Shown here: piece by piece, positions 1-13,563 of the stretch
Layout of the letters: each line of letters begins with the position of its first letter
Position numbering within the stretch: the first letter of the stretch is position 1
IMG/VR virus record: IMGVR_UViG_3300023174_000069
Length of the DNA: 20,000 bases
Direction: 5' to 3' (one strand)
From: an uncultured virus (IMG/VR IMGVR_UViG_3300023174_000069)
Lineage: Duplodnaviria > Heunggongvirae > Uroviricota > Caudoviricetes
Program-made: the position numbers and the translations under genes
The notes under the pieces: model-generated
Told to the model about the DNA's origin: nothing
What the model saw: the letters and a program-made list of their open reading frames with translations, nothing else
Databases searched by the model: none

Positions 1-2
1 CA

Positions 3-104
3 GAATTCATGGAAAATATCTTTGAGATGTTAAAAGTTGCTCACGTTACCAGCGACTCTGATTCTGATCAAGATAGAAAAGAAGAGGAAGTATTAGCCAA
101 CTAA
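3..104 (+). CDS. 3' end of a gene truncated by the window edge (..EFMENIFEMLKVAHVTSDSDSDQDRKEEEVLAN*)
   Basis: Open frame from position 3 to TAA at 102-104; acidic C-terminal tail. Confidence 0.6.
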   Translation, partial: EFMENIFEMLKVAHVTSDSDSDQDRKEEEVLAN

Positions 105-107
105 ATA
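101..107 (+). promoter_or_regulatory. Putative T4-like late promoter (CTAAATA)
   Basis: Variant of the TATAAATA late consensus, 5 nt before ATG 113; the same motif recurs upstream of structural genes in this window. Confidence 0.5.
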
Positions 108-112
108 TTTGT

Positions 113-436
113 ATGAGTTTTGATAAACAAATATTTTTAAATTATCTGTATAAGCTATCCGAGTCTTCCATGGACTACAAGTATGCTTATTCATATATGG
201 GGTCACTAGATGTTCCTAAAAAACAGTTTTCTTCAAACTGCAATAAGTTTTCGTCTGAATTGGCTAAAATATCGTCAACAAAATCTTCATATCAGAAGCA
301 AATATTAAAATCCATATCTATTAATATCAAGAATGAAAATTTGTTGTTAGCTCAAGATTTAATAGACAAATTGGATTCAGGAACAAAAAAATTAATACCC
401 ATACATATTTTGCATTTTGTTGCTAGAAATTCTTGA
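113..436 (+). CDS. Hypothetical protein (107 aa)
   Basis: ORF fills the space between the upstream gene and the tmRNA promoter; no recognisable family. Confidence 0.7.
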   Translation: MSFDKQIFLNYLYKLSESSMDYKYAYSYMGSLDVPKKQFSSNCNKFSSELAKISSTKSSYQKQILKSISINIKNENLLLAQDLIDKLDSGTKKLIPIHILHFVARNS

Positions 437-460
437 TTTTTTCTTATTTTTATATATACT
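433..460 (+). promoter_or_regulatory. Sigma70-like promoter for tmRNA
   Basis: TTGATT (433-438), 16 nt, TATACT (455-460), 9 nt upstream of the tmRNA 5' end. Confidence 0.55.
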
Positions 461-469
461 AGAAAATAC

Positions 470-866
470 GGGCCTGCGTAGTTTCGACTTAATGCTCGGA
501 GCTATTTCCCACAACACGATGATAGTCCTTGGCATCGTAATAAATGGACTAACGTTTAAGTGCAAACTTTAACGAATCTGCTTACGCCTTAGCCGCATAA
601 GCCGTGATTTATAGATGTTCTGCTAGTTACTCTATAAATTGCGTAAGTCAAACTAGCGGTGCTCACAGATAACCATCCGTTATGTGAGGTTAAAACCTAA
701 TCTTGGGTGAGAAAGCTGATTGATCAGCCCCTTGTGACTGAGAGTTGTTTGAACGGAATGTCAACAGGGTTAAGTGCCTGAAAAGCAAGAAAGTTCAAAC
801 TATTGTTGTACACGGAATAGCAAAGACATTATGGACATCGAGTGCGACTCTCGATCAGGTCCACCA
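470..866 (+). ncRNA. ssrA: tmRNA (one-piece), tag peptide ANFNESAYALAA* at 562-600
   Basis: 5' GGGCCTG (470-476) pairs with CAGGTCC (856-862) with a G.U at pair 3, then ACCA; 5' TTTCGAC motif; T-arm ATCGAG-TGCGACT-CTCGAT; resume codon GCA at 562 and tag ending YALAA-TAA. Confidence 0.97.
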
Positions 867-872
867 ATTTTT

Positions 873-1196
873 ATGACGAACACTAGATTATATATTTTGT
901 CCATATTTTTTGGACTTCTTCAAATTGCAGACGGTGTGCTAACGTATATAGGCGTTACCCGTCTAGGTATTTCAGCCGAAGGAAACCCACTGGTTGGATA
1001 TTTCATTCGACTTTTAGGACCATTTCAAGGATTATTTTTTGTTAAGACCATAGGAATAATAGTTATATTCATCATAGGTGTTCGATGCATCAGAGCCGAA
1101 GATAGAAAATGGCTACACAATTTTTTGGTGTCTATGATAGGGTTTTATGTAACTTTTGCAATTATTCCTTGGGTGTATGTTTTAAGTAGAGTCTGA
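873..1196 (+). CDS. Small multi-pass membrane protein, DUF5658-like
   Basis: About three hydrophobic helices with the D-x-x-LTYIG...EGNP motif. True start probably ATG 873, because the track's 774 start lies inside the tmRNA. Confidence 0.7.
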   Translation: MTNTRLYILSIFFGLLQIADGVLTYIGVTRLGISAEGNPLVGYFIRLLGPFQGLFFVKTIGIIVIFIIGVRCIRAEDRKWLHNFLVSMIGFYVTFAIIPWVYVLSRV

Positions 1197-1197
1197 T

Positions 1198-1524
1198 ATG
1201 ATATATGAAATTTATGGAAATACTAAGTTTGAAACAGATCTTTTAAATAGCTCTGATATAATGAATTTAGTTATGGACGAAACTTTTGCCAAAAATCTTT
1301 ATGCATCATTGTGTAATAAAATATGGGTAAAAAATGATGAGAAGTTTTCTGCATCTTGGCGTTATGCAGGAGGTTTAGTTGCAAATTTAAGAAATGTCGG
1401 CGGTGGACTAAATGAAGATTACTTGGATTTTTATCTATCTGGGAATGAGGGAGAAGTTTTCCCAGATGTGCTAGATGTTTTATCCAAATTAGGATGGACA
1501 AAAACCGATTATGTTGATTGCTAA
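1198..1524 (+). CDS. Hypothetical phage protein
   Basis: Starts 1 nt after the upstream stop; motif-like segments FAKNLYASLCN, SWRYAGGLVA, DFYLSGNEG. Confidence 0.8.
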   Translation: MIYEIYGNTKFETDLLNSSDIMNLVMDETFAKNLYASLCNKIWVKNDEKFSASWRYAGGLVANLRNVGGGLNEDYLDFYLSGNEGEVFPDVLDVLSKLGWTKTDYVDC

Positions 1525-1527
1525 ATA
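1521..1527 (+). promoter_or_regulatory. Putative late promoter (CTAAATA)
   Basis: Motif overlaps the stop codon and lies 4 nt before the start of a 13-bp closing stem. Confidence 0.55.
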
Positions 1528-1531
1528 CTAT

Positions 1532-1623
1532 TGGGTTACTTGCTAGGGAGTGTTTTTATCGTTTCCTGCTCCGAATCTGATTCTGTAGCGGAACGGTGTC
1601 AAGAGTCAGAAGCAAGTAGCCCA
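1532..1623 (+). ncRNA. Unassigned structured RNA: three-way junction with complementary loops
   Basis: P1 TGGGTTACTTGCT/AGCAAGTAGCCCA (1532-1544/1611-1623); P2 GGAGT/GCTCC (1547-1551/1568-1572); P3 TCTGATTCT/AGAGTCAGA (1576-1584/1602-1610); loop segments TATCGTTTC and GGAACGGTG can pair. The G.U pairs favour the + strand. Confidence 0.7.
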
Positions 1624-1637
1624 CTCAAAAGGATTTT

Positions 1638-1850
1638 ATGATGAAAATTTTAACATCAATTTTAACTGTTTGTTTTGTTGTTGCACTATTGATTGGTGTT
1701 GCTCTGTTAGGAAAGTATCAACACAAAAATTTAAATCTTCCTATTTGTTTAAATCAGTGTGGAGATAGTATTTGTTCGCCTATGGTTTGTAGCGGTCAAG
1801 GATGTCCTTGTCCTGAGACAAAATTTTCTTGTCCTGGTGATTGTAATTAG
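1638..1850 (+). CDS. Small membrane-anchored cysteine-rich protein
   Basis: N-terminal TM helix followed by an 8-Cys domain (CLNQCGDSIC...CPCPET...CPGDC); AAGGA upstream. Confidence 0.75.
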   Translation: MMKILTSILTVCFVVALLIGVALLGKYQHKNLNLPICLNQCGDSICSPMVCSGQGCPCPETKFSCPGDCN

Positions 1851-1851
1851 T

Positions 1852-2730
1852 ATGAAATCTTTTAATAATTTTTTGCATGAGTCTATATTAGACCCAGAAC
1901 AATCAAGTTTAAGTTCTGTGGTGTTTGATCTAAACGATGAGCCTAAACTTAAAGATTCTGTAAGAGATGAGATTTTGACTAAAATTGCACATTTAGGCAA
2001 AACAGTTGATATAATCGACTATACTCTGATAGGTAGCATTTTAACTAGACGATTTGCAAACGATTCTGATATTGACATCAATGTTTTGGTGTCAGCTTCA
2101 GATGAAAAAATGAATCAAATTAGAAAAACTGCGGTTGAACTTAGTGGAGATTTTCTTTCAAACACAACACATCCCATAAACTTACATGTTTTAAACGACA
2201 AAGCCGACTATGACAATGCCAATAATTCGGCTGACGGGGTTTTCGACATTAGCAATAATAAGTTTGTTCGCAAGCCTATAGAAAAACCATTTCATATAGA
2301 AAAATATATGAAATTATTTAAAGATGCGATTTCAAAGATTGATATTCTTAAAGACGAACTTAAAGACGATATCGTTGATTACAATGAGTTAAAACATTTT
2401 TCTAAAGACGATATGAAATCTTTACAAAAAGAAATTGAATCAAAAATTAAAGAAATAGAAAGTGATGCACAAGGTTTGGTGAATCTATACGACAACATAA
2501 AAAAACAACGTGCCGATGGGTTTGCAAGATCATTAAGTGCATCCGAAATTAGACAGTATGGTGTTAAAAATAGGCTTCCAGGAAACGTCTTGTACAAGTT
2601 GCTGGAGCGTCATTTGTACCTTAATTTTTTACACAAGATACAAGAGATTCTTGGAGATGATGAAAAACTCTCATCCAAAGAGATAGACCAACTAGATAAT
2701 CTAGTAAAAACACAAAGTTATCAACTATAA
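1852..2730 (+). CDS. Pol-beta-superfamily nucleotidyltransferase-like protein, possibly virion-packaged
   Basis: hGS-x9-DxD signature (IGSILTRRFANDSDIDINVLV) and helical/coiled-coil C-terminus. Likely start ATG 1852, 1 nt after the previous stop, giving N-terminus MKSFNNFLHE. Confidence 0.8.
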   Translation: MKSFNNFLHESILDPEQSSLSSVVFDLNDEPKLKDSVRDEILTKIAHLGKTVDIIDYTLIGSILTRRFANDSDIDINVLVSASDEKMNQIRKTAVELSGDFLSNTTHPINLHVLNDKADYDNANNSADGVFDISNNKFVRKPIEKPFHIEKYMKLFKDAISKIDILKDELKDDIVDYNELKHFSKDDMKSLQKEIESKIKEIESDAQGLVNLYDNIKKQRADGFARSLSASEIRQYGVKNRLPGNVLYKLLERHLYLNFLHKIQEILGDDEKLSSKEIDQLDNLVKTQSYQL

Positions 2731-2738
2731 AATAGTAA

Positions 2739-2767
2739 TTGACAAGACTGTTAGTGTTTGTTATCAT
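2739..2767 (+). promoter_or_regulatory. Sigma70-like early promoter
   Basis: TTGACA (2739-2744), 17 nt, TATCAT (2762-2767) with an upstream TG. Confidence 0.8.
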
Positions 2768-2774
2768 AGTAAAT

Positions 2775-3215
2775 ATGAGAACGAAACTACTATTATCCAT
2801 CATCGCATTAGGTGTTTGCACGTCCGCCAGTGCAGATCCTAGAGACATATATGATAACTATCGCAGTTTCGACAGTGATCGTTATGTTGATTCAAGAGAC
2901 TCAAGCAACTCTTCTTTGAGTTCTGATCAAGAACGCATCATCGCAAATGAGAGGTTTGAGACCGAGATGCTCAGACAAGAGGCTCAGCAAGAAACCTATA
3001 GACAGCAAATAGCCTCCAGACAAAACTCTCAAAGAATTGCGGAAAATTCCAGAGAGATTCAAGAGAATCAACGACGATATGAGAACAACTCAAACATGAT
3101 CAATAACGTAAACCAAGCAGCCAACGCAGCGACCAACGTAGCTAGACAAGCAAAGACTATTGGAACGCTGATGAATGGTGGATGGGACGCATATCGTGAT
3201 GCATTTAATTGGTAA
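2775..3215 (+). CDS. Exported protein with signal peptide, Q/R/N-rich coiled coil
   Basis: MRTKLLLSIIALGVCTSASA|DPR looks like a Sec signal with an A-S-A cleavage site; start at ATG 2775. Confidence 0.75.
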   Translation: MRTKLLLSIIALGVCTSASADPRDIYDNYRSFDSDRYVDSRDSSNSSLSSDQERIIANERFETEMLRQEAQQETYRQQIASRQNSQRIAENSREIQENQRRYENNSNMINNVNQAANAATNVARQAKTIGTLMNGGWDAYRDAFNW

Positions 3216-3250
3216 AAATTTTTAGAATAAGAGATTGGTTTTTATATATA

Positions 3251-3399
3251 GTAGTCTCATAGTAACAGCCCTATTTCGACTAACATGAAGCTGGTAGCGC
3301 ATCAAACTGCTTCTATCTTTGGAAGACTTAGGATTCTGGCTGTGAGTTTTATAAGTCGCTCTTGTGAGCGCAAGAATGGAAAAATGAGCTATGGCGCTT
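3251..3399 (+). ncRNA. Putative structured non-coding RNA upstream of the hammerhead
   Basis: GC-richer intergenic segment with several complementary pairs: TAGTCTCAT/ATGAGCTA, ACAGCC/GGCTGT, GAAGC/GCTTC, CGCTC/GAGCG, GACTTA/TAAGTC. Confidence 0.4.
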
Positions 3400-3472
3400 C
3401 TGCACCTGACGAGCCCTGAAGGGCGAAACAGTGCGTAGACACGGCAACTATCGTGTCTCGCCTGTAGTGCAG
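3400..3472 (+). ncRNA. Hammerhead ribozyme, type I
   Basis: Stem I CTGCAC/GTGCAG; core CTGACGA (3406-3412); stem II GCCC-TGAA-GGGC; GAAA (3425-3428); extended stem III ACAG.GCG.AGACACG/CGTGTCT.CGC.CTGT; cleavage triplet GTA (cut after 3466). Confidence 0.93.
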
Positions 3473-3488
3473 TTATATTAAATAATCA

Positions 3489-3517
3489 TAGACTTGTAAA
3501 AATCTCTGTGTTATTCT
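3489..3517 (+). promoter_or_regulatory. Putative sigma70-like promoter for the ligase operon
   Basis: TAGACT (3489-3494), 17 nt, TATTCT (3512-3517) with extended -10 TG. Confidence 0.45.
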
Positions 3518-3551
3518 AAAACAACCACTTGCTTGTGGTTGTTTTTTTTTT
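3518..3551 (+). terminator. Rho-independent terminator
   Basis: AAAACAACCAC-TTGCTT-GTGGTTGTTTT hairpin running into a long T tract. Confidence 0.85.
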
Positions 3552-3556
3552 ATTTT

Positions 3557-4447
3557 ATGATTACTAGACCACTTTTAGCAGCAACATTAGAAGATTTGAG
3601 CACTCTCAAGTTTCCTGTTTTAGCAACACCAAAGCTAGATGGTATTCGAGTCTTAAAAATAAACGGACAAGCAGTAACAAGAAAATTCAAACTTATACCA
3701 AATGTTCACATAAGAGAGCTGTTAGAAAAGCATTTGCCCGACGGTGTTGATGGTGAAGTTATGACACCTGGCACATTCAACGATATTCAATCAAAAGTCA
3801 TGTCATTCGATGGTGAGCCTGAGTTTACATTTTATGCATTTGATTACGTCAAAGACTCTCTGATAAAACCCTATAAAGATAGAATGCTAGACATGGTGAA
3901 CACTCTTGAGTCTGTTGTAAAAGATTCAACTTTACCATTTTCTATCAATTTATTAACACCAGTATTAGTACGCACCATGCAAGAATTGCTAGAGCTTGAA
4001 TCGCAGTGCTTAGAGCATGGGTTTGAAGGTGTGATGATTCGTCAGCCAGATGGTAAGTATAAATGCGGCCGCTCTACACCAAAAGAACAAATACTCATGA
4101 AACTCAAACGGTTCTATGATTCGGAGGCTCAAATAGTTGGCTTTGAAGAGAAGATGCACAACGAAAACAAGCAGGAAAAGGATGAATTTGGTCTATCAAA
4201 ACGTTCTACTAAAAAGGATGGATTGATACCAGCAGACACACTAGGTGCACTAATAGTTGAAGATTTAAAAACCGGTGTAAAATTTGGTTTAGGATCGGGC
4301 TTTACAGATGAGCTAAAGAAGGAAATTTGGTCACATCGCAAGAAGTACAAGAATAAAATAATCAAATATAAATATCAATCAGTTGGTGTTAAAGACGCCC
4401 CGAGATTTCCTGTATTTCTTGGGTTTAGAAGTAAATTGGATCTGTGA
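3557..4447 (+). CDS. lig: Minimal ATP-dependent DNA ligase (Chlorella virus-type)
   Basis: Motif I TPKLDGIR, III DGEV, IIIa FYAFDY, IV EGVMIR, V LMKLK, VI PRFPVFLGFR; ~296 aa from ATG 3557. Confidence 0.95.
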   Translation: MITRPLLAATLEDLSTLKFPVLATPKLDGIRVLKINGQAVTRKFKLIPNVHIRELLEKHLPDGVDGEVMTPGTFNDIQSKVMSFDGEPEFTFYAFDYVKDSLIKPYKDRMLDMVNTLESVVKDSTLPFSINLLTPVLVRTMQELLELESQCLEHGFEGVMIRQPDGKYKCGRSTPKEQILMKLKRFYDSEAQIVGFEEKMHNENKQEKDEFGLSKRSTKKDGLIPADTLGALIVEDLKTGVKFGLGSGFTDELKKEIWSHRKKYKNKIIKYKYQSVGVKDAPRFPVFLGFRSKLDL

Positions 4448-4501
4448 TTAAAAAATATATTTGAGTTCTATTTAGGAAACATAGTCTTTTGGAGGAAAGT
4501 A

Positions 4502-4735
4502 ATGAAAATTGCCTTTGCTAGTCTCGTTAGAACCAATTTGGGCTTTCCTTCAGAGTGGGAAGGAAAATCCGATGACGATCAAAAGATAAAAATTTCTTAT
4601 CGACATGGTAGAACAAAAGTTTTTTGTAATGATAAATTGATAGCAACATTATCTATAGATCAATTCGATGTTGGTGGATATATGGATGATGAAGTATTAG
4701 AAAAACTGTTAAAAGATAATGGGATGATAGCATGA
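4502..4735 (+). CDS. Hypothetical protein
   Basis: GGAGG SD upstream; ATGA overlap with the next gene. Confidence 0.75.
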   Translation: MKIAFASLVRTNLGFPSEWEGKSDDDQKIKISYRHGRTKVFCNDKLIATLSIDQFDVGGYMDDEVLEKLLKDNGMIA

Positions 4736-4959
4736 AAATTCATACACAAACTACATTTTCGCAAGAAATAGAAAAGCTCGTAAGAGAAAATAAGATTTCA
4801 TATTTTGAAGCGGTGTGTAATTATATGACAACTTATAACATTGAACCAGAATCTGTTCCTCGATTGTTGAATATAAACATTAAGCAAAAAATAGAAGCAG
4901 AAGCAACAGATTTAAATCTTATAAACAGAGGAAAGAAGTCAGCCAAATTTTTGTTGTAA
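4732..4959 (+). CDS. gp33: Late transcription co-activator gp33
   Basis: FSQEIEKLV..ISYFEAV..IEPESV..IKQKIEAEA..LNLI pattern; 33-59-32 synteny. Confidence 0.9.
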   Translation: MKIHTQTTFSQEIEKLVRENKISYFEAVCNYMTTYNIEPESVPRLLNINIKQKIEAEATDLNLINRGKKSAKFLL

Positions 4960-4962
4960 GCT

Positions 4963-5586
4963 ATGAATGCATATGAAGCGTATAAAAAATACGTTGCATT
5001 AAAATTACATTTTCAACGAGAAAATTACGACTATTTTAAATTTTCTGGTGGTGTAAAAGTCTCTCGTGATAAGTTTGAAACTCGCAGAGACAAATATTTC
5101 TTTCAAAGAATTTCCAAATTGTATACTGAAAAACAATTTGAGCAACTGCTAGTCTCAAATTTTATAGTAAATAAAAATGTTTGGGTGGGTGAACTTCTAT
5201 CAGAAGATGGTAGAAAGTTGTACATGAACTGGAAAAAAACCTATCAGAGCTTGGAGTATTCTTTTACTGAAGACCTAAATAAAATAAAAGAAATTATCGA
5301 AACTTCATATGATTTGGATAATTTAGATGATTTGTTTGTCACGAATGATAGTAATAATTGGCCAGAGATAGTCAATTTGGTTGTACAGAACACAATTACA
5401 CTAGAAACTTTTATCATAATGAATAAGATACTGAATTTTATACCAAGAATAGACAAACAAATTGATGATGGACTTGTTTGGCCAGAATTTAGAACTCTTT
5501 GTATAAAATATAGTCCATTTTTGGACATAGATGCAAAAAGATATAAGTCCATAATGAAAAAGATTTTTGTTTCAAAAAATGCTTGA
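4963..5586 (+). CDS. gp59: Helicase loader gp59
   Basis: YVALKLHF..YDYFKF, F..RRDKYFF and ITLETFII motifs; synteny. Confidence 0.93.
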   Translation: MNAYEAYKKYVALKLHFQRENYDYFKFSGGVKVSRDKFETRRDKYFFQRISKLYTEKQFEQLLVSNFIVNKNVWVGELLSEDGRKLYMNWKKTYQSLEYSFTEDLNKIKEIIETSYDLDNLDDLFVTNDSNNWPEIVNLVVQNTITLETFIIMNKILNFIPRIDKQIDDGLVWPEFRTLCIKYSPFLDIDAKRYKSIMKKIFVSKNA

Positions 5587-5591
5587 ACATC

Positions 5592-5620
5592 TTGTATAAA
5601 TCTGTTAGATTGATTATAAC
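5592..5620 (+). promoter_or_regulatory. Promoter(s) for gene 32
   Basis: TTGTAT, 17 nt, TATAAC; overlapping TATAAAT (5595-5601) late-like motif; AT-rich leader with GGAG SD at 5648-5651. Confidence 0.55.
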
Positions 5621-5657
5621 ACTATTATTAGTGAACTATTTTTAATTGGAGAAAAAT

Positions 5658-6602
5658 ATGTCATTTGCCGATCTAAAGAAAAATCAAGGAGTAGCAGGTC
5701 TAAAGAATCTTCAAGACGAACTTGAGAAGATGAATAAGAAGGATTCTGCAACTTCTAGTGACGATGATAGGTTTTGGAAGCTGGCTGTTGATAAGTCTGG
5801 AGTCGGTGCAGCAGTTATCAGATTTCTTCCTGAGTCTGAGGGCGATTCTTTGCCATGGGTTTTGATGTATGAACACGCATTCAAGGGACCTGGTGGTTGG
5901 TATATTGAGAAGTCTAGAACAAGTCTAGGAAAAGGCAACCCAGATCCTGTGTTTGAGTACAACAATCAACTCTGGAACTCTGGTATTGATGCAAACAAAG
6001 AGCTTGCTAGAAAGCAAAAGAGAACGCCTCGATACATCTCAAACATTTTAGTTCTAAAAGATCCTGCTAATCCTGAAAACGAAGGAAAGGTTTTCTTGTT
6101 TAAGTACGGTAAGAAGATCTTTCAGAAGATTCAAGAAGCTATGATTCCTGAATCTGATCCTGTAGATCAGAAAGATCCTCTAAATCCATTCTGTCCATGG
6201 AAAGGAGCAAACTTTAAGCTCAAGTGCAGAAAGGTGGATGGCTATCCTAATTATGATCAGTCAGATTTTTCAAATTCTGAGGCCATTCTTGGTGGGGATG
6301 ATAAGAGAATTGAATCTCTTTGGCAAAGTCAGCACAAGCTAACTGAGCTATTGAACCCAACTCAATTTAAGTCCTATGATGATCTAAAGAAGAGATTAGA
6401 TCGAGTTTTAGGATTGAGTGCGGGAATTAAGGTAGAAGATTCAACCGCATCCGCTTCTGCAACCAAGACCACAACTAGAGCATCAGTTGCCGAAAGCGCA
6501 GCAGATGTTGGTGAGGTTACGACACAAGAAACAACATTCTCTGATGATGAAGATATTTCGGATGATTTGTCCTATTTGCAACAGCTTGCTAATGAGGATT
6601 AA
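5658..6602 (+). CDS. gp32: Single-stranded DNA-binding protein gp32
   Basis: DDRFWK..DKSG.G.AVIRFLP, HAFKGPGGWYIE, EGKVFLFKYGKKIF, GANFKLK, acidic tail; start ATG 5658. Confidence 0.97.
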   Translation: MSFADLKKNQGVAGLKNLQDELEKMNKKDSATSSDDDRFWKLAVDKSGVGAAVIRFLPESEGDSLPWVLMYEHAFKGPGGWYIEKSRTSLGKGNPDPVFEYNNQLWNSGIDANKELARKQKRTPRYISNILVLKDPANPENEGKVFLFKYGKKIFQKIQEAMIPESDPVDQKDPLNPFCPWKGANFKLKCRKVDGYPNYDQSDFSNSEAILGGDDKRIESLWQSQHKLTELLNPTQFKSYDDLKKRLDRVLGLSAGIKVEDSTASASATKTTTRASVAESAADVGEVTTQETTFSDDEDISDDLSYLQQLANED

Positions 6603-10343: not shown

Positions 10344-10354
10344 TATTTATTTAG
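10344..10354 (-). promoter_or_regulatory. Putative late promoter (CTAAATAAATA)
   Basis: Overlapping CTAAATA/ATAAATA about 28 nt upstream of gp26. Confidence 0.55.
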
Positions 10355-11619: not shown

Positions 11620-11630
11620 TATTTATTTAT
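11620..11630 (-). promoter_or_regulatory. Putative late promoter (ATAAATAAATA)
   Basis: Fills almost the whole 12-nt gap between gp4 and gp2. Confidence 0.5.
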
Positions 11631-12076: not shown

Positions 12077-13030
12077 ATGTCTAAGGGATATTTAGAGTTT
12101 ATAAAAAAGATGGCCGGTGCGGCCGATATAGTAAATAAAATTGTCGCCGCAGGCGCTGCTACAGGAAATTTAAATCCAGCGGCAGGTGCAGACATACAAG
12201 CTAATCTTGATCCTGACGCAGGAACAAAATTAGAAAGCAAGAACACAGAAGATGAGCAGTGGATGAAAGATAAGGGTGCTCTTATCTACCCACAAAATTT
12301 ATTTACCCCTGGACTGCAAGCATACATTTTATTTTTGATGAGAGATTCTAATCTTAGAAGCACCACGGTATACAAAAGAATTGGGATGTATATGCCTCCA
12401 GCCATAAAGGTTTCTTATGGTTCTAATTGGGAGGAAATTAATATGCCAGTTTCTCAAGCCGTAGATATGGGAAAAGATGTGGTTGATGCCGCAGGCAGCG
12501 CATTTGGTGGAACTTCCGCAGAAAAATCGTCGGCTGTTGATCTTGCATCAAATATCGCAACTTCAGGCGCAGCTAATATGGCTGACATGGCTACCGGGGG
12601 TGAAGCCTTCGGTAATTACCGAGATGTTCAAACTAGAAACACTACAAATCCTCATCAAGCTCTTCTTTTTAAAGGTGTCAGTTTTCGTGAATTTCAATTT
12701 AGTTTTGAGTTGTTAGCTAGAAGTCCAGAAGAAAGCGATAGCATACGACAAATAATAAAAACATTTAAGTGGGGTATGCATCCAGGAGGTGAACAAGATG
12801 CTTCATTTTGGTCTTATCCCAATACATTTGATGTTTATCTTCTAACACCTTCACACAAATATATGTTTAATATTTCTCAGTGTGTACTAACAAACATGGA
12901 AGTTGATTATGGCGGTTCTGGCGCCGCCAGTTTTTTCAAAAATACAGGAGCCCCAGTACATATAAATCTTAGTTTATCATTCAAAGAACTTTCAGTTCTT
13001 ACCAAAAAACTTATCGAAGCCGATTATTAG
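12077..13030 (+). CDS. gp48: Baseplate tail-tube cap gp48
   Basis: LIYP, MYMP, NPHQALLFKGVSFREFQFSFEL.ARS.EE...I..IIK.FK..MHP, CVLTNMEVDY, LSLSFKEL. Confidence 0.9.
   Translation: MSKGYLEFIKKMAGAADIVNKIVAAGAATGNLNPAAGADIQANLDPDAGTKLESKNTEDEQWMKDKGALIYPQNLFTPGLQAYILFLMRDSNLRSTTVYKRIGMYMPPAIKVSYGSNWEEINMPVSQAVDMGKDVVDAAGSAFGGTSAEKSSAVDLASNIATSGAANMADMATGGEAFGNYRDVQTRNTTNPHQALLFKGVSFREFQFSFELLARSPEESDSIRQIIKTFKWGMHPGGEQDASFWSYPNTFDVYLLTPSHKYMFNISQCVLTNMEVDYGGSGAASFFKNTGAPVHINLSLSFKELSVLTKKLIEADY
12089..12095 (-). promoter_or_regulatory. Putative late promoter for gp4, located inside gp48
   Basis: CTAAATA on the minus strand, 14 nt upstream of the gp4 ATG. Confidence 0.55.
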
Positions 13031-13032
13031 TT

Positions 13033-13563
13033 ATGAAGCATTTTGCATATTATCCTAAAATTGAATATGGCAACGAGTTAGCTGTCAATTTAATGATTAG
13101 AGGAAAAATTCGTGACGCCATATTAGAAAAATCCGCACTATACTATAGGTACATTATACAAGATGGTGATAGAGCCGACATAATTTCTACAAAATATTAT
13201 GGAAACCCCAGCTATACATGGGCTATATTCTATGCTAACAATATGTTTCATCCAATACATGATTGGCCTTTGTCGCAGCTTTACTTTGCAAAATATTTAG
13301 AAAGCAAGTATGGTTCCATAGATAATACATATAGAAGTCCTCCACATCACTATGAATATGTGGATCAAGAAAAAAATGTTTATGTAATAGATAAAAAAAC
13401 CTACGATCTTTATAAGACCGATCGAGATTTTCCAAAAGAAGTTAAAGAAGTATCATTTTTTGAATACGAATATCGATTAAACGAAAACAAAAGACATATT
13501 ATAGTCTTAGATAAAGCATATCTCATGAACATAACCAACGAGCTAAAAAATCTATTTAAATAA
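13033..13563 (+). CDS. gp53: Baseplate wedge subunit gp53 (LysM-like)
   Basis: F..YPKI.Y, Y.IQDGDRAD.IS.KYYG....WAI..AN, DWPL, HHYE, EYE..LNE.KR.I. Confidence 0.92.
   Translation: MKHFAYYPKIEYGNELAVNLMIRGKIRDAILEKSALYYRYIIQDGDRADIISTKYYGNPSYTWAIFYANNMFHPIHDWPLSQLYFAKYLESKYGSIDNTYRSPPHHYEYVDQEKNVYVIDKKTYDLYKTDRDFPKEVKEVSFFEYEYRLNENKRHIIVLDKAYLMNITNELKNLFK

Follow-up and report, generated by a model that had tools for sequence, protein, structure and literature searches.

A T4-like phage carries a copy of the CyVA-1 RNA with a conserved loop-loop helix behind a late-promoter-like box

Introduction

In a stretch of 20,000 nucleotides from an uncultured virus (IMG/VR IMGVR_UViG_3300023174_000069), referred to throughout as the window, two open reading frames on the + strand (1198-1524 and 1638-1850) are separated by a spacer of 113 nt that contains a folded RNA. 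The question raised by this locus is what the RNA is, how it would be transcribed, and whether it acts in its own right or as part of the message that follows it. A preliminary description of the locus had treated it as an unassigned and possibly novel RNA. The family is in fact already known: the window holds a further copy of CyVA-1, in a T4-like phage.

Results

The phage and the genes around the RNA

The source of the window is a T4-like marine phage. A gp33-like late regulator (4732-4959), gp59, gp32 and DNA ligase are encoded together with baseplate and head genes; a gp55 gene was not seen within the 20-kb window. The gp32 protein is around 51% identical to gp32 of the five closest named cyanomyoviruses. 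Megablast of positions 1-6000 gave no named-phage match, and a distant blastn search of the same region against named phages matched gp32 alone, at 66-77%. The viral locus L012 (individual copies are given by their L numbers) is a close relative of the window, with the same gene order and with neighbouring proteins 86-91% identical.

Upstream of the folded RNA lies a one-piece tmRNA gene (470-866, +), which matches the full model of Rfam RF00023 (74.8 bits, E 1e-27), encodes CCA at its 3' end and has a tag reading frame at 562-600 that reads ANFNESAYALAA and then stops. ARAGORN reported neither tRNA nor tmRNA in the window, and thus misses the gene detected by Rfam. The tmRNA gene is about 666-670 nt upstream of the folded RNA, and the same spacing is found in L012. 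A DUF5658 ORF (831-1196, +; Pfam E 2e-8) has a listed start that falls within the tmRNA 3' end; its likelier start is the ATG in the same frame at position 873, directly past the tmRNA CCA.

On the 3' side of the RNA, a ribosome-binding-like AAGGA (1629-1633, +) and the ATG of a 70-amino acid ORF (1638-1850, +) both lie within 15 nt of the RNA 3' end, and there is no terminator between the RNA and the ORF. The product of this ORF has a hydrophobic N-terminal segment and a Cys-rich C-terminal half with 10 cysteines. Its counterpart in L012 shows 86% identity, and neither Pfam nor PHROG gave a family for the product, which could be a short peptide that is secreted or sits in a membrane late in infection.

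The fold

The RNA occupies 1532-1623 on the + strand and forms a three-way junction. In a constrained fold, the closing stem P1 (1532-1544 with 1611-1623) has 13 bp, including one U.G pair, and P2, the stem of hairpin 1 (1547-1551 with 1568-1572), which is also given by the Rfam model described below, has 5 bp and a 16-nt loop. P3, the stem of hairpin 2 (1576-1584 with 1602-1610), has 9 bp and a 17-nt loop, and the three junctions of the constrained fold are 2, 3 and 0 nt. The 13-bp closing stem, the two hairpins and the short junctions of the preliminary description are therefore all present where it had placed them. Loop 1 (1552-1567, +; GTTTTTATCGTTTCCT) contains, at 1557-1563 (TATCGTT), the 5' strand of a loop-loop helix whose 3' strand, at 1592-1598 (AACGGTG), lies in loop 2 (1585-1601, +; GTAGCGGAACGGTGTCA). 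Over slightly longer segments, TATCGTTTC (1557-1565) and GGAACGGTG (1590-1598) are complementary at 9 positions, three of them as G.U.

For the + strand the folding energy is -39.3 kcal/mol (z = -3.67) and none of 200 shuffled sequences folds as well; for the - strand z = -1.98, with 7 of the 200 shuffles as good. Between the window and L012, P1 carries pair-preserving changes from G-C to A-U, from U.G to C-G and from G-C to G.U. When the loops were held open the three-way junction fold was obtained for 21 of 22 viral copies, and the homologues thus agree with the original proposal of a structured + strand RNA with a three-way junction and pairing loops.

Assignment to the CyVA-1 family

At curated thresholds, cmscan with Rfam 15 gave two matches in the window, the tmRNA and CyVA-1 (RF02965). 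The CyVA-1 match (1540-1615, +) covers model positions 1-77 of 77 and scores 43.4 bits, which exceeds the Rfam gathering score (41.4) by a margin of only 2 bits, with E 5.3e-7 for the whole window. Since this match passes the curated cut-off, the RNA at 1532-1623 is not unassigned. The preliminary description had itself proposed a cmscan search, and had named a match to a known Rfam family as the result that would speak against a novel RNA; that is the result the search gave, and the claim of novelty is given up.

The CyVA-1 consensus structure, a closing stem with two hairpins, is formed in the window, with P1, P2 and P3 all present, and of P1 the Rfam model spans only the inner 6 bp. The consensus loops of the model are GUUUUaCCGUU (loop 1) and GAAGGAGAaCGACGUCA (loop 2); the corresponding window segments, UUUUUAUCGUUU and GUAGCGGAACGGUGUCA, align to them with high posterior probability. 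The same loop sequences occur in viral copies that score 62 bits (the L002 group) and in bacterial copies at 57-85 bits. Judged by its sequence, the window RNA is a member of the CyVA-1 family. The source organism forms no part of the membership criteria of the RF02965 model, so a phage carrier does not bar membership.

The Rfam type of RF02965 is "Gene; sRNA". CyVA-1 has been described as a motif averaging 78 nt, among large intergenic regions (Weinberg et al. 2017, PMC5737381), and a listing in a second paper records its detection in halite cyanobacteria. The parts of this literature that name CyVA-1 give no function for it, the accession RF02965 was in none of the papers covered by full-text search, and those that such a search gave for cyanophage non-coding RNA and late promoters were not relevant by title or abstract.

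A permissive Rfam scan of 1400-1750 (E up to 10) gave no pRNA, SRP, riboswitch or tRNA family and added solely chance-level matches to snoRNAs and leaders; the Rfam tRNA clan likewise gave no match at 1521-1623. The likeness to phi29 pRNA, to the SRP Alu domain and to purine riboswitches that had been proposed is accordingly not borne out by any such Rfam match, even at E up to 10.

Viral copies and the loop-loop helix

Viral contigs were scanned with patterns built on the conserved loop bases, giving 19 and then 38 loci. Together with the window, the viral loci comprise 27 distinct cores, 21 of which were judged to be true and six false; 13 of the first 19 loci passed the Rfam CyVA-1 cut-off. 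A covariance model, R1, was built from 20 viral copies. With an E limit of 1e-4 it matched 23 of the 48 sources searched and no suspected false core; the matches of the 20 training sequences arise by construction. L003, which was outside the training set, scored 34.4 bits.

Pairs were counted for P3 and the loop-loop helix on a MAFFT alignment of the 20 distinct copies. Each of the 8 aligned pairs of P3 varies on both strands, and the share of paired cells in P3 is 90.6%. In the loop-loop helix, the pair 34-81 is CG in 13 copies, UA in 6 and UG in 1, and the pair 35-80 is CG in 10, UA in 9 and GC in 1, with no unpaired cell in either. For P3 and the loop-loop helix together 89.7% of cells are paired, compared to 68.5% in shuffles (none of 500 reaches the observed level) and at most 46% in slid registers. 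Since the search pattern left both sides of the two varying loop-loop pairs free, their complementarity was not imposed by the search. The other five of the seven core pairs were fixed by the search patterns, so that they never vary in the sets found with these and are uninformative; GTTTTTA and GTTTC of loop 1 are also invariant, in 20/20 aligned copies, at bases fixed by the search pattern.

All 21 of the 21 distinct viral copies retain the loop-loop helix of 7 bp (1557-1563 with 1592-1598). Kissing loops of 9 bp had been described for this RNA. The 7-bp core of that helix is conserved and covaries; the eighth pair (U.G) can form in 17 of the 20 copies, the ninth (C-G) in only 3 of them, and because these two pairs are unconserved the conserved helix is one of 7 bp and not 9. 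Covariation among homologues, the loop-loop pairing included, had been put forward as a check on the structure, and it is seen at two loop-loop pairs and at 8/8 pairs of P3. This covariation fits a fold in which the loops would pair within one molecule, as an intramolecular pseudoknot. In the alignment to R1, P1 and P2 remain out of register between some subgroups, so the support for these two stems comes from the folds of the individual sequences and from the Rfam model.

Further searches were made around this set. A pattern that freed GUU/AAC gave 86 loci, of which 60 were new, with no new true copy and three duplicates; one of its matches, L197 (30.1 bits), was a weak candidate whose loops are not complementary, and it was rejected. 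A pattern that freed loop positions 35-36/79-80 gave mostly false loci among the matches listed. Distant blastn of the window, L002 and L013 elements gave no match in 50,697 phage records, and an R1 search did not find CyVA-1 in the five closest named Kyanoviridae (cyanomyovirus) records.

The alternative hairpin

It had also been noted that the sequence can form a long hairpin in place of the three-way junction, which raises the alternative of a ligand-sensing, riboswitch-like switch between the two forms. The long hairpin is indeed the minimum-energy fold computed by RNAfold for the window, and the architecture recalls that of aptamers that combine a junction with kissing loops, as a resemblance only. 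The preference of RNAfold for this form arises because pseudoknots are not drawable in it and the loop-loop helix is used instead as a nested stem. For the inner helix that only the long hairpin contains, 50% of cells are paired, compared to 46.9% in shuffles, and the helix does no better than slid registers; the switch that had been proposed on the strength of this helix thus lacks conservation of the helix itself. Furthermore, the junctions are 0-3 nt long and variable, the conserved bases being in the loops, and there is neither an expression platform nor a downstream gene class shared between copies. We consider a switch highly unlikely.

The late-promoter-like box and the 3' ends

T4-type late promoters have a TATAAATA-like box a few bases before the transcription start, and are used by phages with gp33/gp55-type late transcription. 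In the window, a late-promoter-like CTAAATA (1521-1527, +; TAAATA at 1522-1527) shares bases with the stop codon of the ORF on its 5' side (1198-1524, +). Five distinct copies (the window, L012, L001, L013, which is identical to L016, and L015) have the junction GCUAGGG in common, and they are termed T4-type here because they share this junction and the box; T4-likeness was established for the window, of which L012 is a close relative. In 5/5 T4-type copies the distance from the end of the TAAATA box to the G of GTTTTTA is 24-25 nt and the box lies 4-6 nt before the first P1 pair, with flanks that are otherwise dissimilar. The case for a promoter thus draws on five sequences, two of which (window and L012) are close relatives. 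The preliminary description had placed the RNA behind a late-promoter motif, and a late-promoter-like box at a fixed distance in the T4-type copies agrees with this.

TAAATA is not enriched in the window as a whole (34 found, 32.4 expected). It is found directly upstream of baseplate and head late genes, for example at 10344-10353 (-) before a baseplate hub gene, and further occurrences upstream of late genes are at 11620-11629 (-), 12089-12094 (-) and 13557-13562 (+). When metagenomes were scanned for the junction motif of the T4-type copies, 7 loci were obtained, and the only phage-like one was the contig of L012 itself.

In the window the 3' strand of P1 (1611-1623) is not followed by a U-run, and the same is true of L012. 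No terminator-like site was found in positions 1-3500 of the window and therefore the RNA probably heads a late message. Four other viral subtypes (the L002 group, L004, L013 and L015) have a U-run straight after P1, and from their sequences they look like stand-alone genes in which the closing stem would double as the stem of a terminator.

Bacterial copies

A prokaryote scan, with one genome per species, gave at least 120 loci. Full loop motifs are present in 76 of the 120 loci listed, nearly all of them in Acidobacteriota MAGs on contigs of up to 3.2 Mb. At the free positions of the loop-loop helix, the 76 chromosomal copies listed have CC/GG in 38, UC/GA in 36, CG/CG in 1 and GC/GG in 1, and the helix is kept in 75/76 of these copies among the matches listed. 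The RF02965 model gave one match per genome in the five genomes tested (two Acidobacteriota, Microcoleus, Verrucomicrobiia and Gemmataceae); the match in the Gemmataceae genome, at 40.3 bits, is just below the cut-off.

The same model matched 16 of 151 sampled Cyanobacteriota, 15 of them above the cut-off. The matched genomes range from 3.5 to 8.4 Mb, and the 10 genomes listed with less than 3 Mb were all without a match. In the acidobacterial class that was sampled, matches were found in at least 7 of 121 genomes, a tally that is a lower bound because few of the first-look candidates were scored. Seven cyanobacterial copies were found by the Rfam model and not by the pattern; in these each core loop-loop pair is kept in 5-7 of the seven, A-U being replaced by G.U or G-C, and two copies have a C-A mismatch.

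In Acidobacteriota the RNA is flanked by ordinary cell genes, for example those for ArgJ, transaldolase, MarC and an ABC-F ATPase, and no neighbour gene shared between the acidobacterial loci was found. Some bacterial copies, L353, L236 and L318 for example, have a U-run directly after P1. CyVA-1 is thus a cellular RNA that is also carried by phages.

Several features of the cyanobacterial loci may be recorded here. In L357-L359, L362 and L364-L367 a second element that scores 23-39 bits with R1 lies 30-60 nt downstream of CyVA-1, and cyanobacteria therefore have tandem CyVA-1-like RNAs; loop 1 of the second element is phage-like, and its loop 2 is interrupted by an additional hairpin. The genome G149 (L356) has two full CyVA-1 copies 726 nt apart. 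Of 12 cyanobacterial loci, 8 (L358-L361, L364-L367) have a gene upstream of CyVA-1, in the same orientation, for a conserved protein of around 230 amino acids; its copies are 51-95% identical and have several hydrophobic segments by eye, and no significant Pfam or NCBIfam match was obtained.

The GCUAGGG junction between P1 and P2 is absent from the acidobacterial and cyanobacterial copies. It was also seen in the high-GC metagenome contigs L373 and L375-L379, and GCCAGGG was seen in L235, a Gemmataceae MAG; its occurrence in these high-GC copies may hint at the origin of the phage RNA lineage.

The neighbours of the viral copies

The proteins encoded downstream of the viral subgroups have no mutual similarity in an all-against-all blastp comparison and no common Pfam or PHROG family, which argues against a regulator of one gene class. 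From the sequences we infer that the RNA is not a regulator of one particular downstream gene.

These data also bear on the alternative that the RNA is a cis-acting leader, in which the folded 5' end would stabilise the late message or tune translation of the 70-amino acid ORF, with no function in trans. The arrangement at the 3' end would suit such a leader, as neither the window nor L012 has a U-run or terminator after P1 and AAGGA and the ATG follow within 15 nt; in other viral copies (L144, L018, L162 and L004) a gene start on the same strand also lies within around 20 nt. Nevertheless, the genes that would be served are unrelated between the viral subgroups, the ribosome-binding site is unpaired in the predicted fold, and four viral subtypes as well as bacterial copies such as L353, L236 and L318 have the U-run directly after P1. 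Further, the loops are invariant over several phyla, which goes beyond the needs of a stabilising hairpin. A leader without further function is a possibility that we think improbable.

A number of the viral copies outside the T4-type are placed within modules for the head and for packaging. A large terminase gene lies downstream of the RNA in L098, L142 and L003 and just upstream of it in L004; in L158 the RNA comes after a major capsid gene, and in L002 and L017 after a weak capsid match. The complementary loops would make pairing between molecules chemically possible, and these positions by terminase and capsid genes could be taken to favour a packaging or virion-associated RNA that forms multimers in the manner of phi29 pRNA, the loops pairing from one molecule to the next. 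Such an RNA is hard to reconcile with the lack of a pRNA family match at E up to 10, with the bacterial copies, where the gene is chromosomal, sits among ordinary metabolic genes and nothing is packaged, and with the five closest named cyanomyoviruses, which are without CyVA-1. In addition, a junction of two hairpins with short linkers favours pairing within one molecule. We give very little credence to this alternative.

Other elements were seen near some of the viral copies. A tRNA lies within the flanks of 2/21 viral loci (L143 and L015), so that tRNA linkage is no general rule; in L143 it is a tRNA-Trp 23 nt upstream of the R1 match, a distance read from a model that includes around 6 nt of flank. 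The large terminase beside the L004 copy (356-2926) contains an intein with a LAGLIDADG domain, and group I introns are found within 3 kb of CyVA-1 copies in L018 (134-337) and L019 (4904-5085).

Discussion

The explanation that we favour is that of a phage-borne CyVA-1 gene with a kissing-loop fold, transcribed late and acting through its shape, and we consider this account, taken as a whole, to be quite probable. The comparisons show a three-way junction in which a kissing helix of 7 bp within the molecule (UAYNGUU with AACNRUG) ties the two large, highly conserved loops together. It would be transcribed late by T4-type machinery from CTAAATA, with a start that the usual geometry of such promoters would place at around 1533, in the first bases of P1. 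It would form the 5' end of a late message for the 70-amino acid ORF and the genes that follow, and may or may not be cut out of it. Its action would be through shape: the kissing-loop module, together with the invariant single-stranded GUUUU, UC, RAG and UCA, could present a surface for a protein or ligand. The RNA does not appear to offer an antisense seed, since the best-conserved bases are used in the internal helix.

CyVA-1 has been a catalogued orphan RNA since 2017. The window adds to this that the 7-bp loop-loop pseudoknot is, as covariation indicates, the conserved core of the CyVA-1 fold, that the RNA is common to the chromosomes of several bacterial phyla and to differing types of phage, and that in T4-like phages it stands behind a late-promoter-like box near a phage tmRNA gene. 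Together these three points ease the design of a functional test.

The carriers include T4-like myoviruses as well as phages with other terminase and capsid types. It is conceivable that a cellular CyVA-1 has been captured repeatedly by several kinds of phage and put under the control of late or structural modules, a suggestion that we make tentatively and regard as doubtful. Were it true, the kissing-loop module would bind a factor conserved across Acidobacteriota, cyanobacteria, Verrucomicrobiota and phage-infected cells, and phages would supply CyVA-1 late, as they do tRNA and tmRNA genes, possibly to hosts that are without it.

The closest known system is CyVA-1 (RF02965) itself, with which the window RNA shares the layout of P1, P2 and P3, a loop 1 like GUUUU.aCCGUU and a loop 2 like GAAG..GAaCG..GUCA. 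It differs in its T4-like phage carrier and late-promoter-like box, in a P1 of 13 bp compared to the 6 modelled, and in being without a terminator. Its loop bases are nearer to the acidobacterial type (GUUUUUAYCGUUUCC) than to the cyanobacterial copies.

The purine riboswitch aptamer is similar in architecture only, with a closing stem and two hairpins that make contact through their loops. In the window RNA this contact is a Watson-Crick helix of 7 bp and conservation falls on the loops rather than on the junction, and there is no Rfam match to such a riboswitch, no expression platform and no shared downstream gene. In phi29 pRNA, loop pairing joins separate molecules into a ring on the packaging motor. 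CyVA-1 resembles pRNA in being a phage-encoded structured RNA with complementary loops, some copies of which adjoin terminase genes, but it has no pRNA match in Rfam and its family is also found in bacterial chromosomes. Finally, the tRNA gene cluster of phage T4 encodes small stable RNAs of unknown function; the likeness to these is one of context only, in that the tmRNA gene of the window lies 666 nt upstream of CyVA-1.
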